This document shows, piece by piece, positions 1,873 to 61,061 of a stretch of DNA of 64,000 nucleotides. This stretch comes from Escherichia phage vB_EcoM_ESCO56. The notes below the pieces were generated by a model. The model was not told where the DNA came from and did not search any database. It worked only from the letters and a program-made list of their open reading frames with translations. The stretch's first letter is position 1, and each line of letters opens with the position of its first letter. Position numbers and translations under genes: made by a program. The stretch is taken from sequence record OM386665.1; one strand, 5' to 3'.

Positions 1873-3489
1873 TCAACGCCTAAGCCCCTCATATGGGTTT
1901 CCTCTCACTAAGTCTGTGTGAGCACCCATTGATGGTGGCTTGAATAATTTAACTTCGTTAAGACTGTTGAAAGCATCACTGGTAGCATCCACTTGGTCAT
2001 CTTTAGTTTTGCCATCACCACAAAAGCCTTCAAGCTCTTGAAAATAAGCTTCGTTCCAACTACCTCTCAAAACTTTTACAAGTCCAGCTTCAGAAGCAGC
2101 AGAAAACCCCGCAAATCGGGTAACTTTATCTTTATTTGTTGGTTTAGCTCTTGCACGATAGCCTTTCTCGGCAAGTTTCCTGATGAGGGATGTTGCGTAG
2201 GATTTACCAGCAGCGCCTGGGTCTTGAGGGATAAAAATACCAGTTCGCTTACCGTCACTTTCAGCAGTCAAATTAATTTGTGTTTCGACTCCAGAGGGTC
2301 TATCTCTAAATCTTACTACATCAATGATATAATAGCAACCGTCTTTTTTAGATTTACCCATCTTAACACCTGCTGTCCAGTCTGGATTAGGGTTAACCTC
2401 AGATGGTAAAGTTGCTGCTAAGTCCCATGCTCTAACATCAAATACATCTTCTGGGAGTGAATCAACAATCTCACACCATTGTCTTTGCCAGTAGTTTGAA
2501 CCTTCTGCACGAGCCTTCCAGTTACCAAAACGAAGTCTTGCAACGTTTACAGGAGTGTTGTTTTCCAACTTACCACGATACTTAGGTTCTAAGAAGTCAA
2601 GAATTGGGTTATCATCAATCGTACCAGAGATAAAGGTGTATGTTTGAGGAATCTCAAGAGGGAACATTTCAAGAATCTTGTCTCTCTCCCAATCAGAAAC
2701 CATCACACCATCATTCATTACATACCAACGAATACGACCACACTTTTCAGGGTCTGGATAACCTTCTTCATCTAAGAATGGTTCTACCCAATCGTAAATA
2801 AAGTGGTCTCTATCTGGGTTCATGGAAATCTTCATGTATGAATCACCATCAGCACCAGAACGTAGACGGGTTTGTAGGTATGAAATCTGTGAAGCAGAGA
2901 AGTGTGTACCTTCATCAAAGTAAATAGCTGAGTATTCAATACCCTGATGACCTTCAGCGTGCTTTTCAAGTTCTAGGTAGGTAAACTTGATAGTTGCCCC
3001 AGAAGGGAATGTGATAGTCATTTTCTGCTCGTGAGGAATCCCACCAAACTTACCAAATAGTTTCTTTGCAGCAGGCCATAAACCACCTTGTAACTGTGTT
3101 GTATTTCGACGGAAATACACAGCATTATAGTTAGGGTCTTCAATAAATCTTAAAGAGTCCATTAACAACGCGGCAGTCTTACCAGCACCAGCAGCACCAC
3201 CATAAAGAACCAAGTCAGCATTAGTGTTTAAAAAGACCTCTTGAGAACCCGGCTGAGGGGCTACATAGTTCTTATCAGTCATCAATTTAAAGATGAGGCG
3301 AACTTGGTCTGGTGTGTATCTTAATAAAGTCAGAATTTGAGTTGGAAGGAATTTAGAGGGGTCTTTACCGAATGATTTAATAATTTCTTTTACTTCATCA
3401 GAAAGCCCCAACTCTCCAGCTAGGACTTTCCTAACATCTTCCACTCGCTTCTGCTTAACAGTATTTAAGTCCATTAAGCGCCTCCGCAA
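1873..3489 (-). CDS. terminase large subunit
   Basis: 538 aa; Walker A P-loop YGGAAGAGKTAALL in N-terminal ATPase region followed by a nuclease-sized C-terminal domain; precedes portal gene. Confidence 0.85.
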   Translation of the reverse strand: MRRRLMDLNTVKQKRVEDVRKVLAGELGLSDEVKEIIKSFGKDPSKFLPTQILTLLRYTPDQVRLIFKLMTDKNYVAPQPGSQEVFLNTNADLVLYGGAAGAGKTAALLMDSLRFIEDPNYNAVYFRRNTTQLQGGLWPAAKKLFGKFGGIPHEQKMTITFPSGATIKFTYLELEKHAEGHQGIEYSAIYFDEGTHFSASQISYLQTRLRSGADGDSYMKISMNPDRDHFIYDWVEPFLDEEGYPDPEKCGRIRWYVMNDGVMVSDWERDKILEMFPLEIPQTYTFISGTIDDNPILDFLEPKYRGKLENNTPVNVARLRFGNWKARAEGSNYWQRQWCEIVDSLPEDVFDVRAWDLAATLPSEVNPNPDWTAGVKMGKSKKDGCYYIIDVVRFRDRPSGVETQINLTAESDGKRTGIFIPQDPGAAGKSYATSLIRKLAEKGYRARAKPTNKDKVTRFAGFSAASEAGLVKVLRGSWNEAYFQELEGFCGDGKTKDDQVDATSDAFNSLNEVKLFKPPSMGAHTDLVRGNPYEGLRR

Positions 3490-4093: not shown

Positions 4094-4828
4094 TTATCTT
4101 TGTAATGCGCTCTTCATTTCTGGTGTTGCAATAGTATCAATCACACCAGTTTTACAAGCATCATCAAACCAGTCTGGTAAGATACCTGCTAAGAACCCAT
4201 TGATATTCGTTTTAAGGTACTCTGCAATAAGGGCAGCTTCTTCTTCAATCATCTGCACAACTTCATCTGCATAAGCTGTAATCTTTGAGATACCTTCATT
4301 AATCTTACTAACAGCCTGATTAGCTAAATCAGAAATAGTCTCAAGACCCTCATCAATAGCGTCTTGTAAGTCACTTAACACACCGTTAACACTGTCTAGT
4401 GTGCTGTTAATCATGTCAATAGCTTGCTGACCATACTCTGTAGCAACACCCATAATACCACTAAATGGTGTACAACCAACTTGTTCTCCTGCTGCACCCA
4501 TAACATTGGAGTATCCCTTTGCTACCTGCATACGTGATGAAAACTCATCAATAGACTTTTGACCGTAGTCTGTTAGGGTCTTAGTAGTTGCTGTAGTGCT
4601 TGTAAGGCTTGTTGTAAAACTGTTTAGAAGGACTGTTGTAAGTCCAGCAGCAACAAGCTTCTCCTTCATTGTAGGGTCTGTTACAGAGCTAATAGAGCTT
4701 ACAAGTGATGTAGAGGCAGCTACGGTTCCACCGAGAACTGCTGCACCAGTAATAAGTGGGTTAGAAAACCCTCTACCGGTTTTTAAGAGATTAAAAATCT
4801 CCTTACCTTGTTCTGTCATCTCTTTCAT
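4094..4828 (-). CDS. hypothetical protein (Ser/Thr-rich, coiled-coil C-terminus)
   Basis: Track ORF 4094..4876 overlaps the tRNA at 4845-4923; trimmed to ATG at 4828 (MKEMTEQ...) with AAAGGTG RBS. Confidence 0.55.
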   Translation of the reverse strand: MKEMTEQGKEIFNLLKTGRGFSNPLITGAAVLGGTVAASTSLVSSISSVTDPTMKEKLVAAGLTTVLLNSFTTSLTSTTATTKTLTDYGQKSIDEFSSRMQVAKGYSNVMGAAGEQVGCTPFSGIMGVATEYGQQAIDMINSTLDSVNGVLSDLQDAIDEGLETISDLANQAVSKINEGISKITAYADEVVQMIEEEAALIAEYLKTNINGFLAGILPDWFDDACKTGVIDTIATPEMKSALQR

Positions 4829-4844
4829 TAAGCACCTTTGAAAT

Positions 4845-4923
4845 TGGTACTCCATATCGGATTCGAACCGATACATAACACAGATTTTAAGTCTGGCCTC
4901 TCTGCCAATTGGAGTAATGGAGC
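4845..4923 (-). tRNA. tRNA with anticodon UAA (Leu-decoding) but class-I length
   Basis: Acceptor GCTCCAT/ATGGAGT, Leu-like D-arm (3-bp stem, loop CAATTGGCAGA), anticodon loop CTTAAAA, short variable loop, T-arm ATCGG-TTCGAAT-CCGAT, A73, CCA. Confidence 0.65.
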
Positions 4924-4925
4924 AT

Positions 4926-5001
4926 TGGCGGGGGATGTTGGAATTGAACCAACTTCTTCGATTTCAAAGACCGAGGTTTTAACCTTGTAAACTAATCCCC
5001 T
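4926..5001 (-). tRNA. tRNA-Gln (anticodon UUG)
   Basis: Anticodon stem TCGGT/ATCGA with loop CTTTGAA, T-arm GTTGG-TTCAATT-CCAAC, discriminator G; 1:72 apparently unpaired. Confidence 0.75.
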
Positions 5002-6580: not shown

Positions 6581-6662
6581 TGGTCGAGGCGGCAGGACTC
6601 GAACCCGCATACTCCACTTACTCGGTTAACGTCTGTTTAGAAGACAGATGAGATACGCCCCG
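6581..6662 (-). tRNA. tRNA-like element (acceptor and T-arm present, anticodon-like loop CUUCUAA; no D-arm resolved)
   Basis: Acceptor CGGGGCG/CGCCTCG with one G-U, T-arm GCGGG-TTCGAGT-CCTGC, A73, CCA; only internal hairpin is TCTGT-CTTCTAA-ACAGA placed too far 5' for a canonical tRNA. Confidence 0.3.
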
Positions 6663-6910
6663 TAATTATCTTTAAAGACTCTCTTAGAAAGCCCTTAAAG
6701 ATGCCCACCTTATTAATCATACCGTGGGCTAGTACGCCAAATTCTTTGATGAGGGATTGGAAGACCTCACTGGTGTTTAGCCTATCAAGCTACTGCCAGA
6801 AAAACATTGTCGTTTGCATTTATTTTAAATTTGCAAAATAGACGCTACGCAACGAAAACTAAGGGTACTATAAAGTGGTCACATCACTATTCTGCTACAC
6901 TTCCATTAAA

Positions 6911-7050
6911 TTATCTTTGTAGATAAGCTACCCAGACTTGCTTAAGGTCTGTAGCGATGTGACTTTTTGGGTTTAAATCTAGAATTTACCCTTTCACCCT
7001 TTGTGGTCGCATACTCACAGGTAAGCTTAATAACTTATCTACAAAGATAA
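6911..7050. repeat. long inverted repeat (17-bp perfect arms, about 106-bp spacer) in tRNA-array spacer
   Basis: TTATCTTTGTAGATAAG at 6911-6927 is the exact reverse complement of CTTATCTACAAAGATAA at 7034-7050. Confidence 0.8.
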
Positions 7051-17100: not shown

Positions 17101-17662
17101 TGGTGTGATAGCTATGGAAAAAGATAACTTAAAAGAAGTTGAAGGTAACTACCTAGTCCTTGACTGGAGTGATATTCGAGAAGCATTATCCAAAGAAAGC
17201 CTTGACATACTGGAGCAGCTTGTCTTTTCAGTACGACATATCAGAGAAGTTGAAAATGGTAAAGAGCCACTTGAAGGAATCTTTGTAGAGAAGTCTTATC
17301 CGTTCTATGAAGACACTTTGCAGAAAGTTAAAATGTACTTTAAACAGAAGAACCGTAAAGTGGTCACTATGGTATCTCTTGGTGGACAGAGTATGTCTGT
17401 GATGGAAGATATCAATCCTAAGAGACCGAGCAAAGGTGTCTGTATAAAAATCACAGGGCATGAAGAGTATATCTCAATTGATGATTTTAGTGCACTCTGT
17501 AATGGTTCTGCTGTCTTTAATGGGTTTCACTATGATATCCGAGTGTATCCAATCAAGGGGGATGCTGTTATGATGCAGATATTCGATATCAATGGTGGAT
17601 TTACTCATTTTTATCAGACAACCAAGTCATCATTGAAGACAGTTTTAGAAAGTCTGATTTAA
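17057..17662 (+). CDS. hypothetical protein
   Basis: 201 aa ORF; start uncertain (alternative ATG at 17114). Confidence 0.5.
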   Translation: MTTSLQYQTSKFYDNGVIAMEKDNLKEVEGNYLVLDWSDIREALSKESLDILEQLVFSVRHIREVENGKEPLEGIFVEKSYPFYEDTLQKVKMYFKQKNRKVVTMVSLGGQSMSVMEDINPKRPSKGVCIKITGHEEYISIDDFSALCNGSAVFNGFHYDIRVYPIKGDAVMMQIFDINGGFTHFYQTTKSSLKTVLESLI

Positions 17663-17674
17663 AATATCTTAAGA

Positions 17675-17700
17675 GCCTCCTTAATTGGGGGCTTTTTATT
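17675..17700 (+). terminator. intrinsic terminator ending the plus-strand operon
   Basis: GCCTCC-TTAATT-GGGGGC hairpin followed by TTTTTATT. Confidence 0.7.
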
Positions 17701-17890
17701 GAGTAAAATTTACGAAATTTATATTTTTTATAAAATTTATCGGTTGTACCAACCTCTGGGTCACCATCATATGTGAATAAAATATCTATCCTTCTTAACA
17801 ACCTTCTTAATCTTACTCTCTATATAGTTATATAGTATTATATAGTATCTTAGTAACTATCTAGTGGTCTTAATAGCCCATCTGTATAAC

Positions 17891-17962
17891 CCTTCTAACA
17901 AGCCTTCTAACAAGCCTTCTAACAAGCCCTCTAACAAGCCCTCTAACAAGCCTTCTTAACAG
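17891..17962. repeat. tandem 12-bp repeat, six units (CCTTCTAACAAG and variants)
   Basis: Direct inspection: ccttctaacaag x3, ccctctaacaag x2, ccttcttaacag x1. Confidence 0.9.
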
Positions 17963-18318
17963 CCTATACAATCACCTTAACCATCCCTCTACACCCTCTT
18001 AGAAGCTCCTATACACCTCTTAATCTCTAGGTAAGCTATGACACTCTCTATAGGTGTTCACTAGGCACTACTAAGCCTCTATATAGACTGTTTTAACAAA
18101 CTTAACAGGAATATCTTTACAGACCTTATCTCACAAGGTCTAACACGGTACTAACAAGGTATCTTATAAGCCTGTTTCTACCTGTATTTTAGAAAGACTG
18201 TATAGGTAATTATTCAGAATTTTAATTTTTTTATAAAATAAGACTGTCAAGCCATTTTTTAGGGTCTTTGAAGGAACTGAAAAATATCTGTAGAGGATGT
18301 ATATCTGTTTGGTAGCCC

Positions 18319-18594
18319 TTAACAGCTCTGTAACATCCCCTTTGCAAAATTTTAAAATATCATTAACAATCTCTTAACAACTCTCTCAAGTTCTTAACAT
18401 CTCTTCAGAGGTCTTAACAGTTTCTTAACAGTTTTAACAAGAGGGTAACAATTTCTTAACAGTTGATACATAGGCTTTACAGAATCTTAACAGATGATTA
18501 ACAAGAGCTAACAAGTTAATTTTTAAGGGTTATTTTGTTAAGATAATTAACAAGTTCCTAACAAGTATTTAATCTTTTTAACAAACTATTAACA
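18319..18594. repeat. array of at least 16 (C/T)TAACA(A/G) sites, mostly spaced 11 or 20 bp (helically phased)
   Basis: Site starts at about 18319, 18330, 18363, 18374, 18394, 18414, 18425, 18434, 18445, 18456, 18487, 18498, 18508, 18547, 18558, 18578, 18589. Confidence 0.85.
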
Positions 18595-18660
18595 TGGTCA
18601 CTACTCTTTTCTTATCGTTCCCTTTCCTTTCTTAGTGATACCTTAAAAATGCCTTTTAAA

Positions 18661-18682
18661 AGCTCTCTATAGCTCTCTATAG
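18661..18682. repeat. tandem 10-bp repeat AGCTCTCTAT x2 plus partial
   Basis: agctctctat agctctctat agactc. Confidence 0.8.
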
Positions 18683-18796
18683 ACTCTTTTTAGTCTCTCC
18701 CTAGTATTTACCCCTCAACTGTATGAATAGCCCTTTATAGGGCTTTACAGGGCTTTTAAGGCTATGCCAAAGGCTTTTACAAGGCTTTTACGTGGT

Positions 18797-18895
18797 CTTA
18801 ACAGAGATTTAACAAGGGGCTAACAAGTTGTTAACAAGTGTCTTAAAAGTATAACTATGTAGGATTTGTTAAGAAATTGTTAAGAAAATGTTAAG
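18797..18895. repeat. convergent set of TTAACA sites (four direct, then three inverted as TGTTAAG)
   Basis: cttaacag, tttaacaag, gctaacaag, gttaacaag, then ttgttaag, ttgttaag, atgttaag at 10-12 bp spacing. Confidence 0.8.
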
Positions 18896-18910
18896 GGGGC
18901 TAGCATTTAC

Positions 18911-18940
18911 GTAACTTTTGAGTAACTTTTGAGTAACTTT
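18911..18940. repeat. tandem 11-bp repeat GTAACTTTTGA x2.7
   Basis: gtaacttttga gtaacttttga gtaacttt. Confidence 0.8.
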
Positions 18941-19114
18941 ATAGCCCCTATAACATACTTTTTAGTGACTATCAAGCCCTTTTTAGTAGTTCACGAGATA
19001 CTAATCAGCCTATAAGCTTATACCCTTAAAAGATTCTTTTAAGGCTCTGTAAAGCCTTATAAAGGGCTTTTTAAGGTTAGTTAATGCAATCCCTTAAGTT
19101 ATATTGATAATGCT

Positions 19115-19134
19115 GTTATAGAGCGTTATAGAGC
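19115..19134. repeat. tandem 10-bp repeat GTTATAGAGC x2
   Basis: gttatagagc gttatagagc. Confidence 0.8.
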
Positions 19135-19312
19135 GTTTAAAGGTTTGCCCTTCCCTCTCGGGCTATGGGCTTGTATTTAAGTTGATTTGATAAAAGGCTA
19201 TAGGGTAGACTATAGAGTTATTGCTTTTTAAGGTATGAGATAAACTCTATCGAATCAGTGGGGAGATTCTAGAAAGGTGAGGAAAGGGATTGCATAAGGA
19301 TTTGATAGACGT

Positions 19313-19335
19313 AAAAAAGCCCCCATTTAAGGGGC
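19313..19335 (-). terminator. intrinsic terminator for the minus-strand early region
   Basis: Minus strand: GCCCC-TTAAATG-GGGGC hairpin followed by TTTTTT (plus-strand A-run 19313-19318). Confidence 0.65.
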
Positions 19336-19379
19336 TTTATAAAGGTATCTGGGGCTATTTAGCCCCGTTGATTGACAAT

Positions 19380-19910
19380 TTACAGATTTTTGATTGTATC
19401 ATCGATATCTTTTTCAATATCTTTTAAAGTTTTTTCTAAATTCTTGATATTGAAAGATAAGCCCTCTCCCAATGTCTTAGTGTAACCTTCAGGACGTGAG
19501 TTATATAGTTCAATTTCTTCCACTTCAAAGAGACTCACCGCCTCACCGTTTACATTGTAAGCCATTGAAACAGTATTTACAGGGGCTTTATAAAACTTGT
19601 TCAATGACTTGATTGAACGCTCATAAGTCATTTTATAACTGTTTAACAGGTTTTTAACGTGATTGTAAATGTTTTTACACTCATCTAAGTAAATCTCTAA
19701 GAATAACGGTAATAATTTTGCGACAGCTTGCATGAAATGAGAGACTACAACGGTTGCAACATTACGACGATGGACATAATAAGCCCCTTTTCCTGATTTA
19801 GTGATAGTTGCAAAATGTACACCATTGCAGCGAAATTCATATGTATCTTTGACAGGTTTAGACATTACAGCGCTTGAACGAATGAAGTTGATAGCTTGAA
19901 ATTTGTTCAT
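19380..19910 (-). CDS. hypothetical protein
   Basis: 176 aa ORF; GGAGA RBS; preceded by a family-1 promoter/leader cassette. Confidence 0.6.
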   Translation of the reverse strand: MNKFQAINFIRSSAVMSKPVKDTYEFRCNGVHFATITKSGKGAYYVHRRNVATVVVSHFMQAVAKLLPLFLEIYLDECKNIYNHVKNLLNSYKMTYERSIKSLNKFYKAPVNTVSMAYNVNGEAVSLFEVEEIELYNSRPEGYTKTLGEGLSFNIKNLEKTLKDIEKDIDDTIKNL

Positions 19911-19942
19911 TTTAGAATCTCCAGTTTAGGACTTTATTTAGT

Positions 19943-19962
19943 GGGGAGGTCATACCCTCCCC
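19943..19962 (-). repeat. leader hairpin, family 1 (GGGGAGG-loop-CCTCCCC), copy 1
   Basis: Lies between putative promoter and RBS of gene 19380..19910; repeated upstream of three other genes. Confidence 0.7.
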
Positions 19963-19972
19963 GTTGATTAGT

Positions 19973-20001
19973 AATTTACTTGGTTTGATATCTGATTGCA
20001 A
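19973..20001 (-). promoter_or_regulatory. sigma70-like early promoter (TTGCAA-N17-TAAATT)
   Basis: Minus-strand reading; followed by conserved hairpin leader and GGAGA RBS. Confidence 0.45.
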
Positions 20002-20136
20002 GCATTTTTTTTTTTTAAGTTTAGCTATAAAGAAATCTTTTAAGTGAATCCCTTTTAGATAAGCCCCCTCGAACAACATTATCAATGTCAAGGGGCGTTG
20101 TCAATACTTTTTTAAAAGTTTTTTGTAAGTTATTGA

Positions 20137-20478
20137 TTAACTGATGAATATTTTTTCAGGTTTTACATAGCTGATACGCTGATTTTTTAGAAGGTCATCC
20201 CAGATTAGCGCGGCAATATGAGAATAGCCGGATTCACGTAGAATCTTCATCGTTTTACATCTCGTTTCAAATCTGGTTGCATAGTACTCACTATTTAAAA
20301 CCGTTTTATTGCCTTCATTGTCCACATGTATAATTTGCATCACTTGAAAGGGGCTTACATCCTCGCCCTTGTTCCATTGTTCAAAGTATTTTAGGCACTG
20401 TATAGGTGTCATCTTGTCACTTACTTGAGTTGACCAAGATGAATCCTCTTTATCGGTAATTACGGTTACATAAGCCAT
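20137..20478 (-). CDS. hypothetical protein
   Basis: 113 aa ORF behind family-1 cassette. Confidence 0.55.
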   Translation of the reverse strand: MAYVTVITDKEDSSWSTQVSDKMTPIQCLKYFEQWNKGEDVSPFQVMQIIHVDNEGNKTVLNSEYYATRFETRCKTMKILRESGYSHIAALIWDDLLKNQRISYVKPEKIFIS

Positions 20479-60556: not shown

Positions 60557-60769
60557 ATGGCTCTTAAAAAGTTACATCCCAGAAGCGGTTATGGTAAGAT
60601 AATTGACGATACAGACGGCGTTACAGTCTTTACAGTTATCTGTCAAGATGATTCACAGATTGAAAAGGTTCTTGACGATTATCTTAACGATGAGCGTGAA
60701 AAGGTTAGGGCTACAAACATAGATTCATTGATTGATACTTCACACAAACGGAAGAAGAAAGATGAATGA
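60557..60769 (+). CDS. hypothetical protein
   Basis: 70 aa ORF. Confidence 0.5.
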   Translation: MALKKLHPRSGYGKIIDDTDGVTVFTVICQDDSQIEKVLDDYLNDEREKVRATNIDSLIDTSHKRKKKDE

Positions 60770-61061
60770 GGTTTTCGACCCTTATGCCCCACAAGATGAT
60801 TGGGAGGCTGATAGAGAGGCTGAAATGGAGAGTTATATTTGTCCAATGGATGTAGACGAAATGAGAGACTTCGTTGCACATCGTTTTAAGAGAGAGATTA
60901 AATCCAGAGGTCTTTCTCAAGAACAAGTTGCTAAAATTTGTGGTATCTCTCAGGCTCGTGTGTCCAACATAATCCATCTCACTGGTAACGTCTCCCTTGA
61001 GTATATGTTGGGAGTGTGTGAAAAATTTGGTGTTAATTTCAATTTAAGGTTGGCAGATTAA
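60762..61061 (+). CDS. helix-turn-helix protein (XRE-like, putative transcriptional regulator)
   Basis: Track ORF 60732..61061 trimmed to ATG at 60762 (ATGAATGA overlap with upstream stop); LSQEQVAKICGISQARVSNIIHL is an HTH signature. Confidence 0.55.
   Translation: MNEVFDPYAPQDDWEADREAEMESYICPMDVDEMRDFVAHRFKREIKSRGLSQEQVAKICGISQARVSNIIHLTGNVSLEYMLGVCEKFGVNFNLRLAD

Follow-up and report, generated by a model that had tools for sequence, protein, structure and literature searches.

Introduction

Phages with short exact direct terminal repeats (DTRs) package their DNA from concatemers in which each junction has one repeat; cleavage by the terminase is at fixed positions, and the other copy of the repeat is made during packaging (PMC10438801, PMC6454146). 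How the terminases of such phages find and cleave the two repeat edges is not well understood, even for T7. Among the Felix O1-like phages, the ends of UAB_Phi87 were mapped by Bal31 digestion and run-off sequencing, which gave discrete Bal31-sensitive fragments, run-off drop-offs, and a DTR of 608 bp, and the Felix O1-type TerL was placed in a 'Felixounalikevirus DTR group' of its own (Bardina et al. 2016, PMC4837284). In Ro111lw and Pr103Blw, PhageTerm found DTRs of 613 bp (PMC6454146) and 581 bp (PMC8303462), respectively, and it assigned the DTR class to D4 (PMC11737134). Here we describe the corresponding locus of Escherichia phage vB_EcoM_ESCO56 (sequence record OM386665.1), a gene-free region at positions 17663-19379 of the 64,000-nucleotide stretch that was analysed (the window), in which arrays of short TTAACA sites fill much of the terminal repeat and continue outside it.

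The DTR is not new and was mapped experimentally in UAB_Phi87, whereas the arrays appear not to have been described previously: a literature search of incomplete coverage found no paper describing TAACA arrays in this sequence, which has been in print since 2016, and the Felix O1 genome paper, a Danish wastewater phage preprint, and the PhageMaP preprint contained nothing on the region. The structure is real, strongly non-random, and conserved, and its terminal-repeat context explains most of what seemed mysterious about it. We lean slightly towards the explanation that the TTAACA sites are a recognition scaffold of the packaging machinery, which positions the terminase cuts at the DTR; this preference owes most to the identity of the region and less to the mechanism.

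Results

The gene-free region is a concatemer junction

When the gene-free region was used as the query, the window matched approximately 255 Felix O1-like phages at 85-92% identity, and on the strength of this match the genome is therefore assigned to Felixounavirus, a genus of strictly lytic phages. Two of the records with Felix O1-like sequence, GU169904.1 ('Staphylococcus phage SA1') and MG065664.1 ('Campylobacter phage A132'), show ~100% protein identity to the window and are probably contaminated or mis-assigned.

The original prediction, which was made from the letters alone, described the region as lying between two convergent gene blocks and as lacking any open reading frame (ORF) of 60 aa or more. 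Both statements hold. The ORF list contains none of at least 60 aa wholly inside 17663-19379, a mechanical 66-aa TTG ORF (17601-17801, minus strand) clipping only the left edge. The region extends from the last rightward to the last leftward gene, is closed on both sides by terminator-like hairpins (17677-17691 on the plus strand and 19333-19320 on the minus strand), and is ~85% conserved across three genera; the two transcription units of Felix O1-type phages converge at this locus (PMC3185647). An Rfam scan of 17300-19700 gave no family, the sole match being a sub-threshold Phe-leader over the terminator, and an RNA gene in the junction was rejected.

When the repeat core was used as a query, several records proved to have this stretch at their very ends, in two copies. 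Comparison of the record ends gave an exact redundancy of prefix and suffix of 581 bp in D4, 613 bp in SPJ41, and 651 bp in NBEco005. These records are independent deposits, yet they end identically (5'-GGTAGCCCTTAACA... and ...TGTTAAGGGGGC-3'), and both boundaries of the redundancy map to window positions 18311 and 18900 in all three. The published DTR sequence of UAB_Phi87 equals the reverse complement of window 18309-18892 and is thus the same locus; in the orientation of the window its first base is 2 nt left of 18311, and its last base, inside the final TGTTAA site, is 8 nt before 18900. Erwinia phage MM7 has an exact terminal redundancy of 444 bp at the homologous place. Since the terminal redundancies of relatives and the ends of UAB_Phi87 map inside it, the gap at 17663-19379 is the junction between genome units in the concatemer of a Felix O1-type myovirus. 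Its three parts are unique DNA of the right end (17663-18310), the DTR of ~590 bp (18311-18900), which this assembly has collapsed into a single copy, and unique DNA of the left end (18901-19379).

Judging by the conserved boundary sequences, the repeat would sit at both ends of the virion DNA of this phage as well. The TerL of the window (1876-3474, minus strand) shares 99% identity with its D4 counterpart and falls in the DTR-generating terminase clade.

Two shorter end overlaps, of 77 bp in REP10 (OQ174509.1) and 127 bp in PC79-13 (OR687644.2), were rejected as DTRs because these lengths are typical assembler k-mer sizes. In both records the contig breaks inside the junction, and the overlaps are probably assembly artefacts, although that of PC79-13 is annotated as a repeat_region. 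The terminal redundancy of PaP1 was discarded as a comparator, since it contains genes.

TAACA sites are densely arrayed in and beside the repeat

About 30 copies of (C/T)TAACA(A/G) had been predicted in the region, and we counted 31 YTAACAR sites in 17795-18883, out of 102 across the 64 kb. In the junction region there are 33 copies of the TAACA core on the plus strand and six on the minus strand, the expectation from 2000 dinucleotide-preserving shuffles of the region being 2.95 +/- 1.64 (maximum 10); for plus-strand YTAACAR, 27 sites were observed and 1.08 expected from the shuffles. The two controls named in the original prediction, a motif count throughout the genome and shuffled sequence of the same composition, both left the pattern standing. 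Density is 18.1 per kb inside the region and 1.14 per kb outside (~16-fold), and the shuffles reproduced neither the counts nor the spacing. Only four array-like pairs were found outside the junction when ~2.3 were expected, and a wider TAACA regulon was rejected.

The largest group is a main array of 17 same-strand cores (18320-18594, plus strand; consensus t-y-T-TAACA-R-g), with one inverted site at 18536. The prediction of at least 16 sites at 18319-18594 with spacings mostly of 11 or 20 bp is borne out: the spacings of the 17 cores (18320-18590) are mostly 11 bp, followed by 20, 9, 10, 31, and 33 bp. Within this array, just inside the left DTR boundary, lies the conserved block CCTTTGCAAAATTTTAAAATATC (18338-18362, plus strand), with an invariant run at 18352-18361 in an alignment of ten genomes from three genera (Felixounavirus, Mooglevirus, and Suspvirus). 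BLAST matches from Erwinia phages and from Pectobacterium phage Arno18 span only the part of the query that holds this block.

Near the right edge of the repeat, four direct sites on the plus strand (18799, 18810, 18821, and 18832; 18799-18836) and three inverted sites on the minus strand (18867, 18878, and 18889) converge on each other, each set with 11-bp spacing, so that the convergent set of four and three that had been noticed is confirmed at 18799-18893. The first three direct sites are present in nine to ten of the ten aligned genomes; the fourth, within a GTTAAC palindrome, is present in three. Outside the DTR on its left lie two further pairs (18094-18157, plus strand), of which the pair 18141/18152 is invariant (runs 18140-18149 and 18152-18160), and the tandem 12-bp array CCTTCTAACAAG (17891-17965, plus strand). 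Tandem Repeats Finder (TRF) gave the latter a period of 12 and 6.2 copies, in agreement with the six units originally reported; it lies in the unique DNA beside the right-end copy of the DTR.

So many phased sites might also be expected of a partition centromere or of a decoy (sink) for a DNA-binding protein such as region 4 of sigma-70, and both had been put forward. TTAACA is one base from the -35 hexamer TTGACA, and a promoter scan does pick it up as -35-like. The scan gave 10 promoter-like matches in the junction and 7.2 +/- 3.1 in shuffles, i.e. no excess, and the sites have no -10 partners. Nothing specific supports a sink or would link one to the cut sites. As for a centromere, the annotated relative D4 has no ParA/ParB-type genes, and a strictly lytic phage has no plasmid stage. 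We consider this pair of explanations exceedingly improbable.

Inverted sites bracket both ends of the repeat

At the left DTR boundary, the block GATGTATATCTGtTTGGTAGCCCTTAACA (18296-18324, plus strand; cut at ~18309-18311) forms the left arm of an inverted bracket, TAGCCC-TTAACA. It is invariant in ten of ten genomes over 18296-18307 and 18309-18319 (GATGTATATCTG.TTGGTAGCCCT), and the TATATCT that flanks this boundary is kept in Erwinia phage MM7 also. The right edge (18866-18902, minus strand; cut at ~18892-18900) is made up of the three inverted sites followed by the boundary block TGTTAAGGGGGCTA, with an invariant run at 18893-18902 (AAGGGGGCTA) in the ten genomes. Read as its reverse complement, this arm of the bracket is TAGCCCCC-TTAACA.

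Alignment of the boundaries showed that the two arms are an imperfect inverted repeat that includes the TTAACA site, and that the inverted copies of TAGCCC(CC)TTAACA lie 6-8 nt from both mapped ends. The inverted sites of the right edge are in addition a near-perfect inverted copy of the 18412-18430 pair (19 nt, 95%). In Moogleviruses and Suspviruses the boundary cores are 1-nt variants, TAAACA and TTTACA.

The repeat sites, but not the tandem array, are helically phased

The original prediction held that the sites are phased on the DNA helix. This is true of the arrays in the DTR and untrue of the 12-bp tandem array. The 17 sites of the main array have a best period of 10.3 bp (vector strength R=0.82, p ~0.002), and 21 sites across 512 bp have one of 10.4 bp (R=0.79, p<0.001); steps of 9, 10, 20, 31, and 33 bp among the 11-bp steps bring the long-range period to 10.3 bp, and this period is found in all ten genomes. 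The best period of the tandem array is 12.3 bp, i.e. it is not helically phased.

Curvature, proposed as a check at the outset, was predicted with a wedge model whose parameters make the values below approximate. The main array is predicted to be straight, with an end-to-end/contour ratio of 0.96, straighter than 96% of stretches of the same length, and an intrinsic bend as the purpose of the phasing was rejected. The phasing would therefore present the sites on one face of the DNA and create no bend. The strongest predicted bend lies 8-34 bp outside the right boundary, in the GTAACTTTTGA repeats (18908-18940, plus strand; 2.7 copies, TRF row 18911-18940), which begin 8 bp beyond it and reach 24.3 degrees per turn, the maximum of the whole 64-kb window. 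The DTR centre (18601-18795) is also predicted to be curved, its mean curvature being at the 99.3rd percentile.

The DTR centre contains two other repeat families, AGCTCTCTAT (~3.8 copies) and GGCTTTWCAR (~5 copies), with TRF rows at 18661-18698, 18733-18756, and 18744-18791; the two families show partial complementarity (27 nt, 78%). A set of AT-rich 9-bp repeats at 17701-17736 is likewise in the top 0.5% of predicted curvature.

Positions and spacing of the sites are conserved

Comparison with related phages, another of the checks first proposed, identified the region as the DTR locus and showed that both sites and spacing are conserved. Within the DTR, site columns are 94.9% conserved and other columns 82.9% (ten genomes), and in a permutation test the DTR sites scored 0.950, random 5-mer positions scoring 0.854 +/- 0.028 (p<0.0002). 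The majority of the sites in the DTR occur in every one of the ten genomes. The equivalent gap contains 22-25 plus-strand cores in Citrobacter and Shigella Moogleviruses and 23 in a Suspvirus, 20 plus-strand and 10 minus-strand cores in an Erwinia Kolesnikvirus, and eight plus-strand and 14 minus-strand cores in Pectobacterium phage Arno18; in each of these gaps the direct sites occupy the left side and the inverted sites the right. The site spacings of Erwinia phage MM7 are 11, 20, 20, 20, 9, 11, and 11 bp, and those of the window are 11, 20, 20, 11+9, 11, and 11 bp. Since the DNA of the two phages is only ~67% identical, over a short stretch, it is the geometry that has been conserved and not just the sequence.

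Conservation of this kind bears on whether the sites could be a non-functional by-product of replication slippage in non-coding terminal DNA. Slippage gives uniform tandem units and not steps of 9, 10, 11, 20, 31, and 33 bp that sum to a 10.3-bp phase, and it would not explain why the DTR sites are conserved above their spacers (p<0.0002) or why four genera share their positions and spacing, even in places with diverged spacers. The 12-bp array at 17891-17965 does fit such an origin: its units are kept in only one to three of the ten genomes (conservation 0.36-0.39), its copy number varies, as is expected for a slippage-prone repeat, and it is not helically phased. For the sites in the DTR we judge a by-product to be very improbable.

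The IMG/VR database was scanned for three TTAACA with 11-bp spacing. Among the matches listed, arrays of at least 14 sites per 600 bp were found only in Ounavirinae, with the exception of one simple 11-bp tandem repeat; the other matches listed from outside this subfamily were mostly chance matches of 3-8 sites in AT-rich contigs. The confinement of dense arrays to Ounavirinae among these matches makes a binder that is lineage-specific and encoded by the phage more likely than a general host factor. One unrelated viral contig in the scan, IMGVR_UViG_3300013103_000024, has converging GTGTTAA / TTAACAC iterons with 9-11 bp spacing at ~6640-7040, a separate system with a longer consensus.

The same scan bears on a genome-end cap or entry element, in which the arrays would bind a host or co-injected protein that guards the incoming ends from exonucleases or, through the repeats, controls DNA ejection or concatemer formation. 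Sites in the DTR stand at both physical ends, and phasing on one face suits a coating protein; moreover, the authors of PhageMaP note that the Felixounavirus Bas63 has no RecBCD inhibitor. We know of no candidate protein for a cap, the restriction of dense arrays to one subfamily among the matches listed argues against a general host factor, and a cap would explain neither the bracket at the cut sites nor why 11 further sites lie beyond the repeat on just one of its sides. An end cap is, in our estimate, quite unlikely.

A proposed role in end formation and packaging

The densest arrays lie inside the DTR and inverted sites stand at both cut sites, which points to genome-end formation and packaging. 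It also suits a packaging role that transcription from both sides stops at terminators before the junction. Of the original prediction, the general suggestion that proteins bind the array cooperatively on one face of the helix is supported, on the evidence of the period, the conservation, and a spacing kept as far as Erwinia phages, while the origin, centromere, and sink that it named as possible functions are not supported.

From this arrangement we infer protein binding, the membership of the binder in the packaging machinery, and a staggered-nick geometry, as follows. The T(C/T)T-TAACA-(A/G) sites would be bound by a sequence-specific, phage-encoded protein. Within the repeat, on DNA predicted to be straight, this protein would assemble head-to-tail on one face and be bounded by the converging inverted sites at the right edge. 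The inverted TAGCCC(CC)TTAACA copies at the boundaries would place the terminase nuclease symmetrically. Both boundary sites point into the repeat and are hence related by a two-fold axis, so that a nuclease placed by a protein at each site would act on opposite strands at the two edges, as the T7-type model of staggered nicks and strand displacement requires. Opposite strands would accordingly be nicked at ~18309-18311 and ~18892-18900, and strand-displacement synthesis would then copy the repeat in the course of packaging, in the manner of T7-type phages. In its full form, with a putative DNA-binding protein that coats one face of the DTR through ~25 phased TTAACA sites and sets both cuts through the inverted boundary sites, or with a telomere-like end complex in its place, the proposal is possible but doubtful.

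An origin of replication was among the functions first proposed. The TAACA sites would then be iterons for a phage initiator that melts a neighbouring AT-rich stretch, in or beside the repeat. No initiator gene is annotated in the D4 genome or detectable in the flanking ORFs with Pfam or PHROG. There is no cluster of DnaA boxes, the one match (17772) being at chance level, and by hand alignment the TAACA site fits the DnaA 9-mer at three of nine positions. The same-strand 11-bp arrays and the converging set do resemble initiator arrays, and the oriC of E. coli has oppositely oriented arrays of low-affinity DnaA sites with a centre spacing of ~11 bp. AT-rich stretches are also near (GC 0.28-0.31 at 17600-17900 and 18100-18400, in a phage genome that is AT-rich as a whole), and transcription does not pass through the junction. 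Against an origin, the replisome of the phage is T7-like, with a primase-helicase and a family A polymerase, and such replisomes typically start from transcription-primed origins. An origin would also leave the coincidence of inverted sites with the two cut sites unexplained, and we regard it as unlikely.

Several points weigh against a packaging scaffold. The window has one copy of the repeat, and the terminal redundancy of this isolate is deduced from that of its relatives. The 1-nt variants at the boundaries of Moogleviruses and Suspviruses suggest that the exact core is not strictly needed at the cut sites. The ~40 sites are far above the number in known pac or cos sites, and the analogous arrays of T7 are reportedly dispensable for packaging. 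In the PhageMaP study, most loci at the T7 genome ends were non-essential. Felix O1-type phages were reported to have a TerL homolog only (PMC3185647), and in our hands no small terminase was detectable by PHROGs, Pfam, or Pharokka annotation. The original prediction saw no candidate binding protein nearby, and this is still so: no binder for the TTAACA sites was found among the candidates searched, which are described below.

Neighbouring genes and candidate binding proteins

The ORFs that flank the junction have no Pfam match and no functional PHROG match. Only one flanking gene is conserved in all genera, a 176-aa ORF that directly adjoins the junction (19380-19910, minus strand). By tblastn it is 31-46% identical to proteins of Moogle, Susp, and Erwinia phages (31-34% for Erwinia), and it always stands beside the terminal repeat; its homologs carry the precomputed Pfam label PF26821. 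An AlphaFold2 (AF2) model with a predicted local distance difference test (pLDDT) score of 89 shows a beta sheet and a long helical hairpin, without a recognisable DNA-binding fold, and a structural search of the PDB with this model gave no match better than E=0.17.

A 99-aa XRE-type helix-turn-helix protein (60762-61058) and a 66-aa ORF upstream of TerL (phrog_4397) are both conserved in Felixouna-, Moogle-, and Suspviruses. Neither was detected in the array-bearing Erwinia phages by tblastn, which has low power for proteins this short. A 244-aa DUF7217 protein was rejected as the binder because it looks like a virion or tape-measure-type protein.

Other features of the junction

In most relatives, two small genes (87 aa and 82 aa) lie between the DTR and the 176-aa gene; they are absent from this phage (window 18901-19379 compared with D4 877-1455 and Felix O1 4683-4931), and both are therefore dispensable. 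The 82-aa gene is ORF23 of Felix O1, and both genes are also present in Moogleviruses and Suspviruses. The left-end non-coding stretch is ~630 bp shorter here than in the relatives that have them.

A scan for the integration host factor (IHF) consensus WATCAANNNNTTR gave five matches in the window, a total at chance level; four of the five cluster in 19295-20138 (850 bp), right of the junction and all on the minus strand. On the other side, at 17800-18100, the unique DNA left of the DTR that includes the 12-bp tandem array has a GC skew reaching -0.6, its plus strand being C/T-rich. The heptamer CTCTATA is ~26-fold enriched in the junction and recurs in Moogleviruses and Suspviruses.

A second motif, (C)TTAGAAG, occurs in the junction of Erwinia Kolesnikviruses, with at least nine copies at ~3060-3370 of Erwinia phage SunLIRen, on the side where the E. 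coli phages have other short repeats. Its presence suggests that more than one family of protein-binding elements may occupy the junction.

Discussion

The Felix O1 group offers a cleaner case of short-DTR end formation than has been available, with a large, conserved, and precise array, mapped cut sites, an inverted bracket, and no known small terminase, and the array could lead to a new specificity factor. Of more immediate use, GGTAGCCCTTAACA and TGTTAAGGGGGC let the true termini be annotated in several hundred deposited Felixounavirus genomes. Most of these records were opened arbitrarily, without the repeat, and many of the phages are candidates for therapy or biocontrol.

The nearest described systems are the DTRs of the Felix O1-like phages themselves (608 bp in UAB_Phi87, and those of Ro111lw and Pr103Blw), which are at the same locus and have lengths of 581-651 bp in relatives and 590 bp here. 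The papers on them give only the existence, length, and sequence of the repeat, and nothing on the TAACA arrays, their phasing, or the bracket.

Inverted repeats also lie at the edges of the long terminal repeats of Twort-like staphylococcal phages, as reportedly described by Lobocka et al. in 2012. The likeness would be that short inverted sequences mark both edges of the terminal repeat. Those repeats are several kb long and contain genes, and no internal phased array is known in them.

T7 has a short exact DTR as well, and packaging from concatemers is inferred for both phages. In the T7 sequence we counted 13 CCTAAAG in a 739-bp non-coding junction, all on one strand and none on the other; three fall within the 160-bp repeat and the others flank it to left and right, with a spacing mostly of 13 bp, which is not helical. 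These short-repeat arrays were reportedly named SRL and SRR by Dunn and Studier in 1983. To our knowledge they have no assigned function, and our search of the T7 packaging literature found no description of them. The two loci are thus alike in having a short motif repeated on one strand in and beside the terminal repeat. They differ in that the motifs, CCTAAAG and TAACA, are not homologous and the phages are unrelated, so that the likeness is one of analogy and not of family membership. Most T7 copies are outside the repeat and without inverted copies, whereas most TAACA sites are inside. The T7 junction also contains the promoters A0, phiOL, and phiOR, and T7 has the small terminase gp18, whereas nothing like gp18 was found here.

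Terminase sites composed of repeated short elements are known in P1 pac (4+3 hexamers), in the R sites of lambda cosB, and in SPP1 pacL and pacR. As in these, repeated short elements adjoin a cleavage position in the present junction, with three inverted and four direct sites less than 100 bp from the right cut; the four direct and three inverted sites recall the 4+3 of P1 pac, and the phasing would suit wrapping or coating by an oligomeric protein. The known sites have three to seven elements and a known small terminase, whereas here no TerS was detected, ~40 sites extend over 1.1 kb, and two cuts lie 590 bp apart. If the TTAACA sites do serve packaging, recognition would be organised unlike the known pac, cos, and T7 sites, in a lineage without a recognisable small terminase, and the system would be conserved across the Ounavirinae of Escherichia, Salmonella, Citrobacter, Erwinia, and Pectobacterium.

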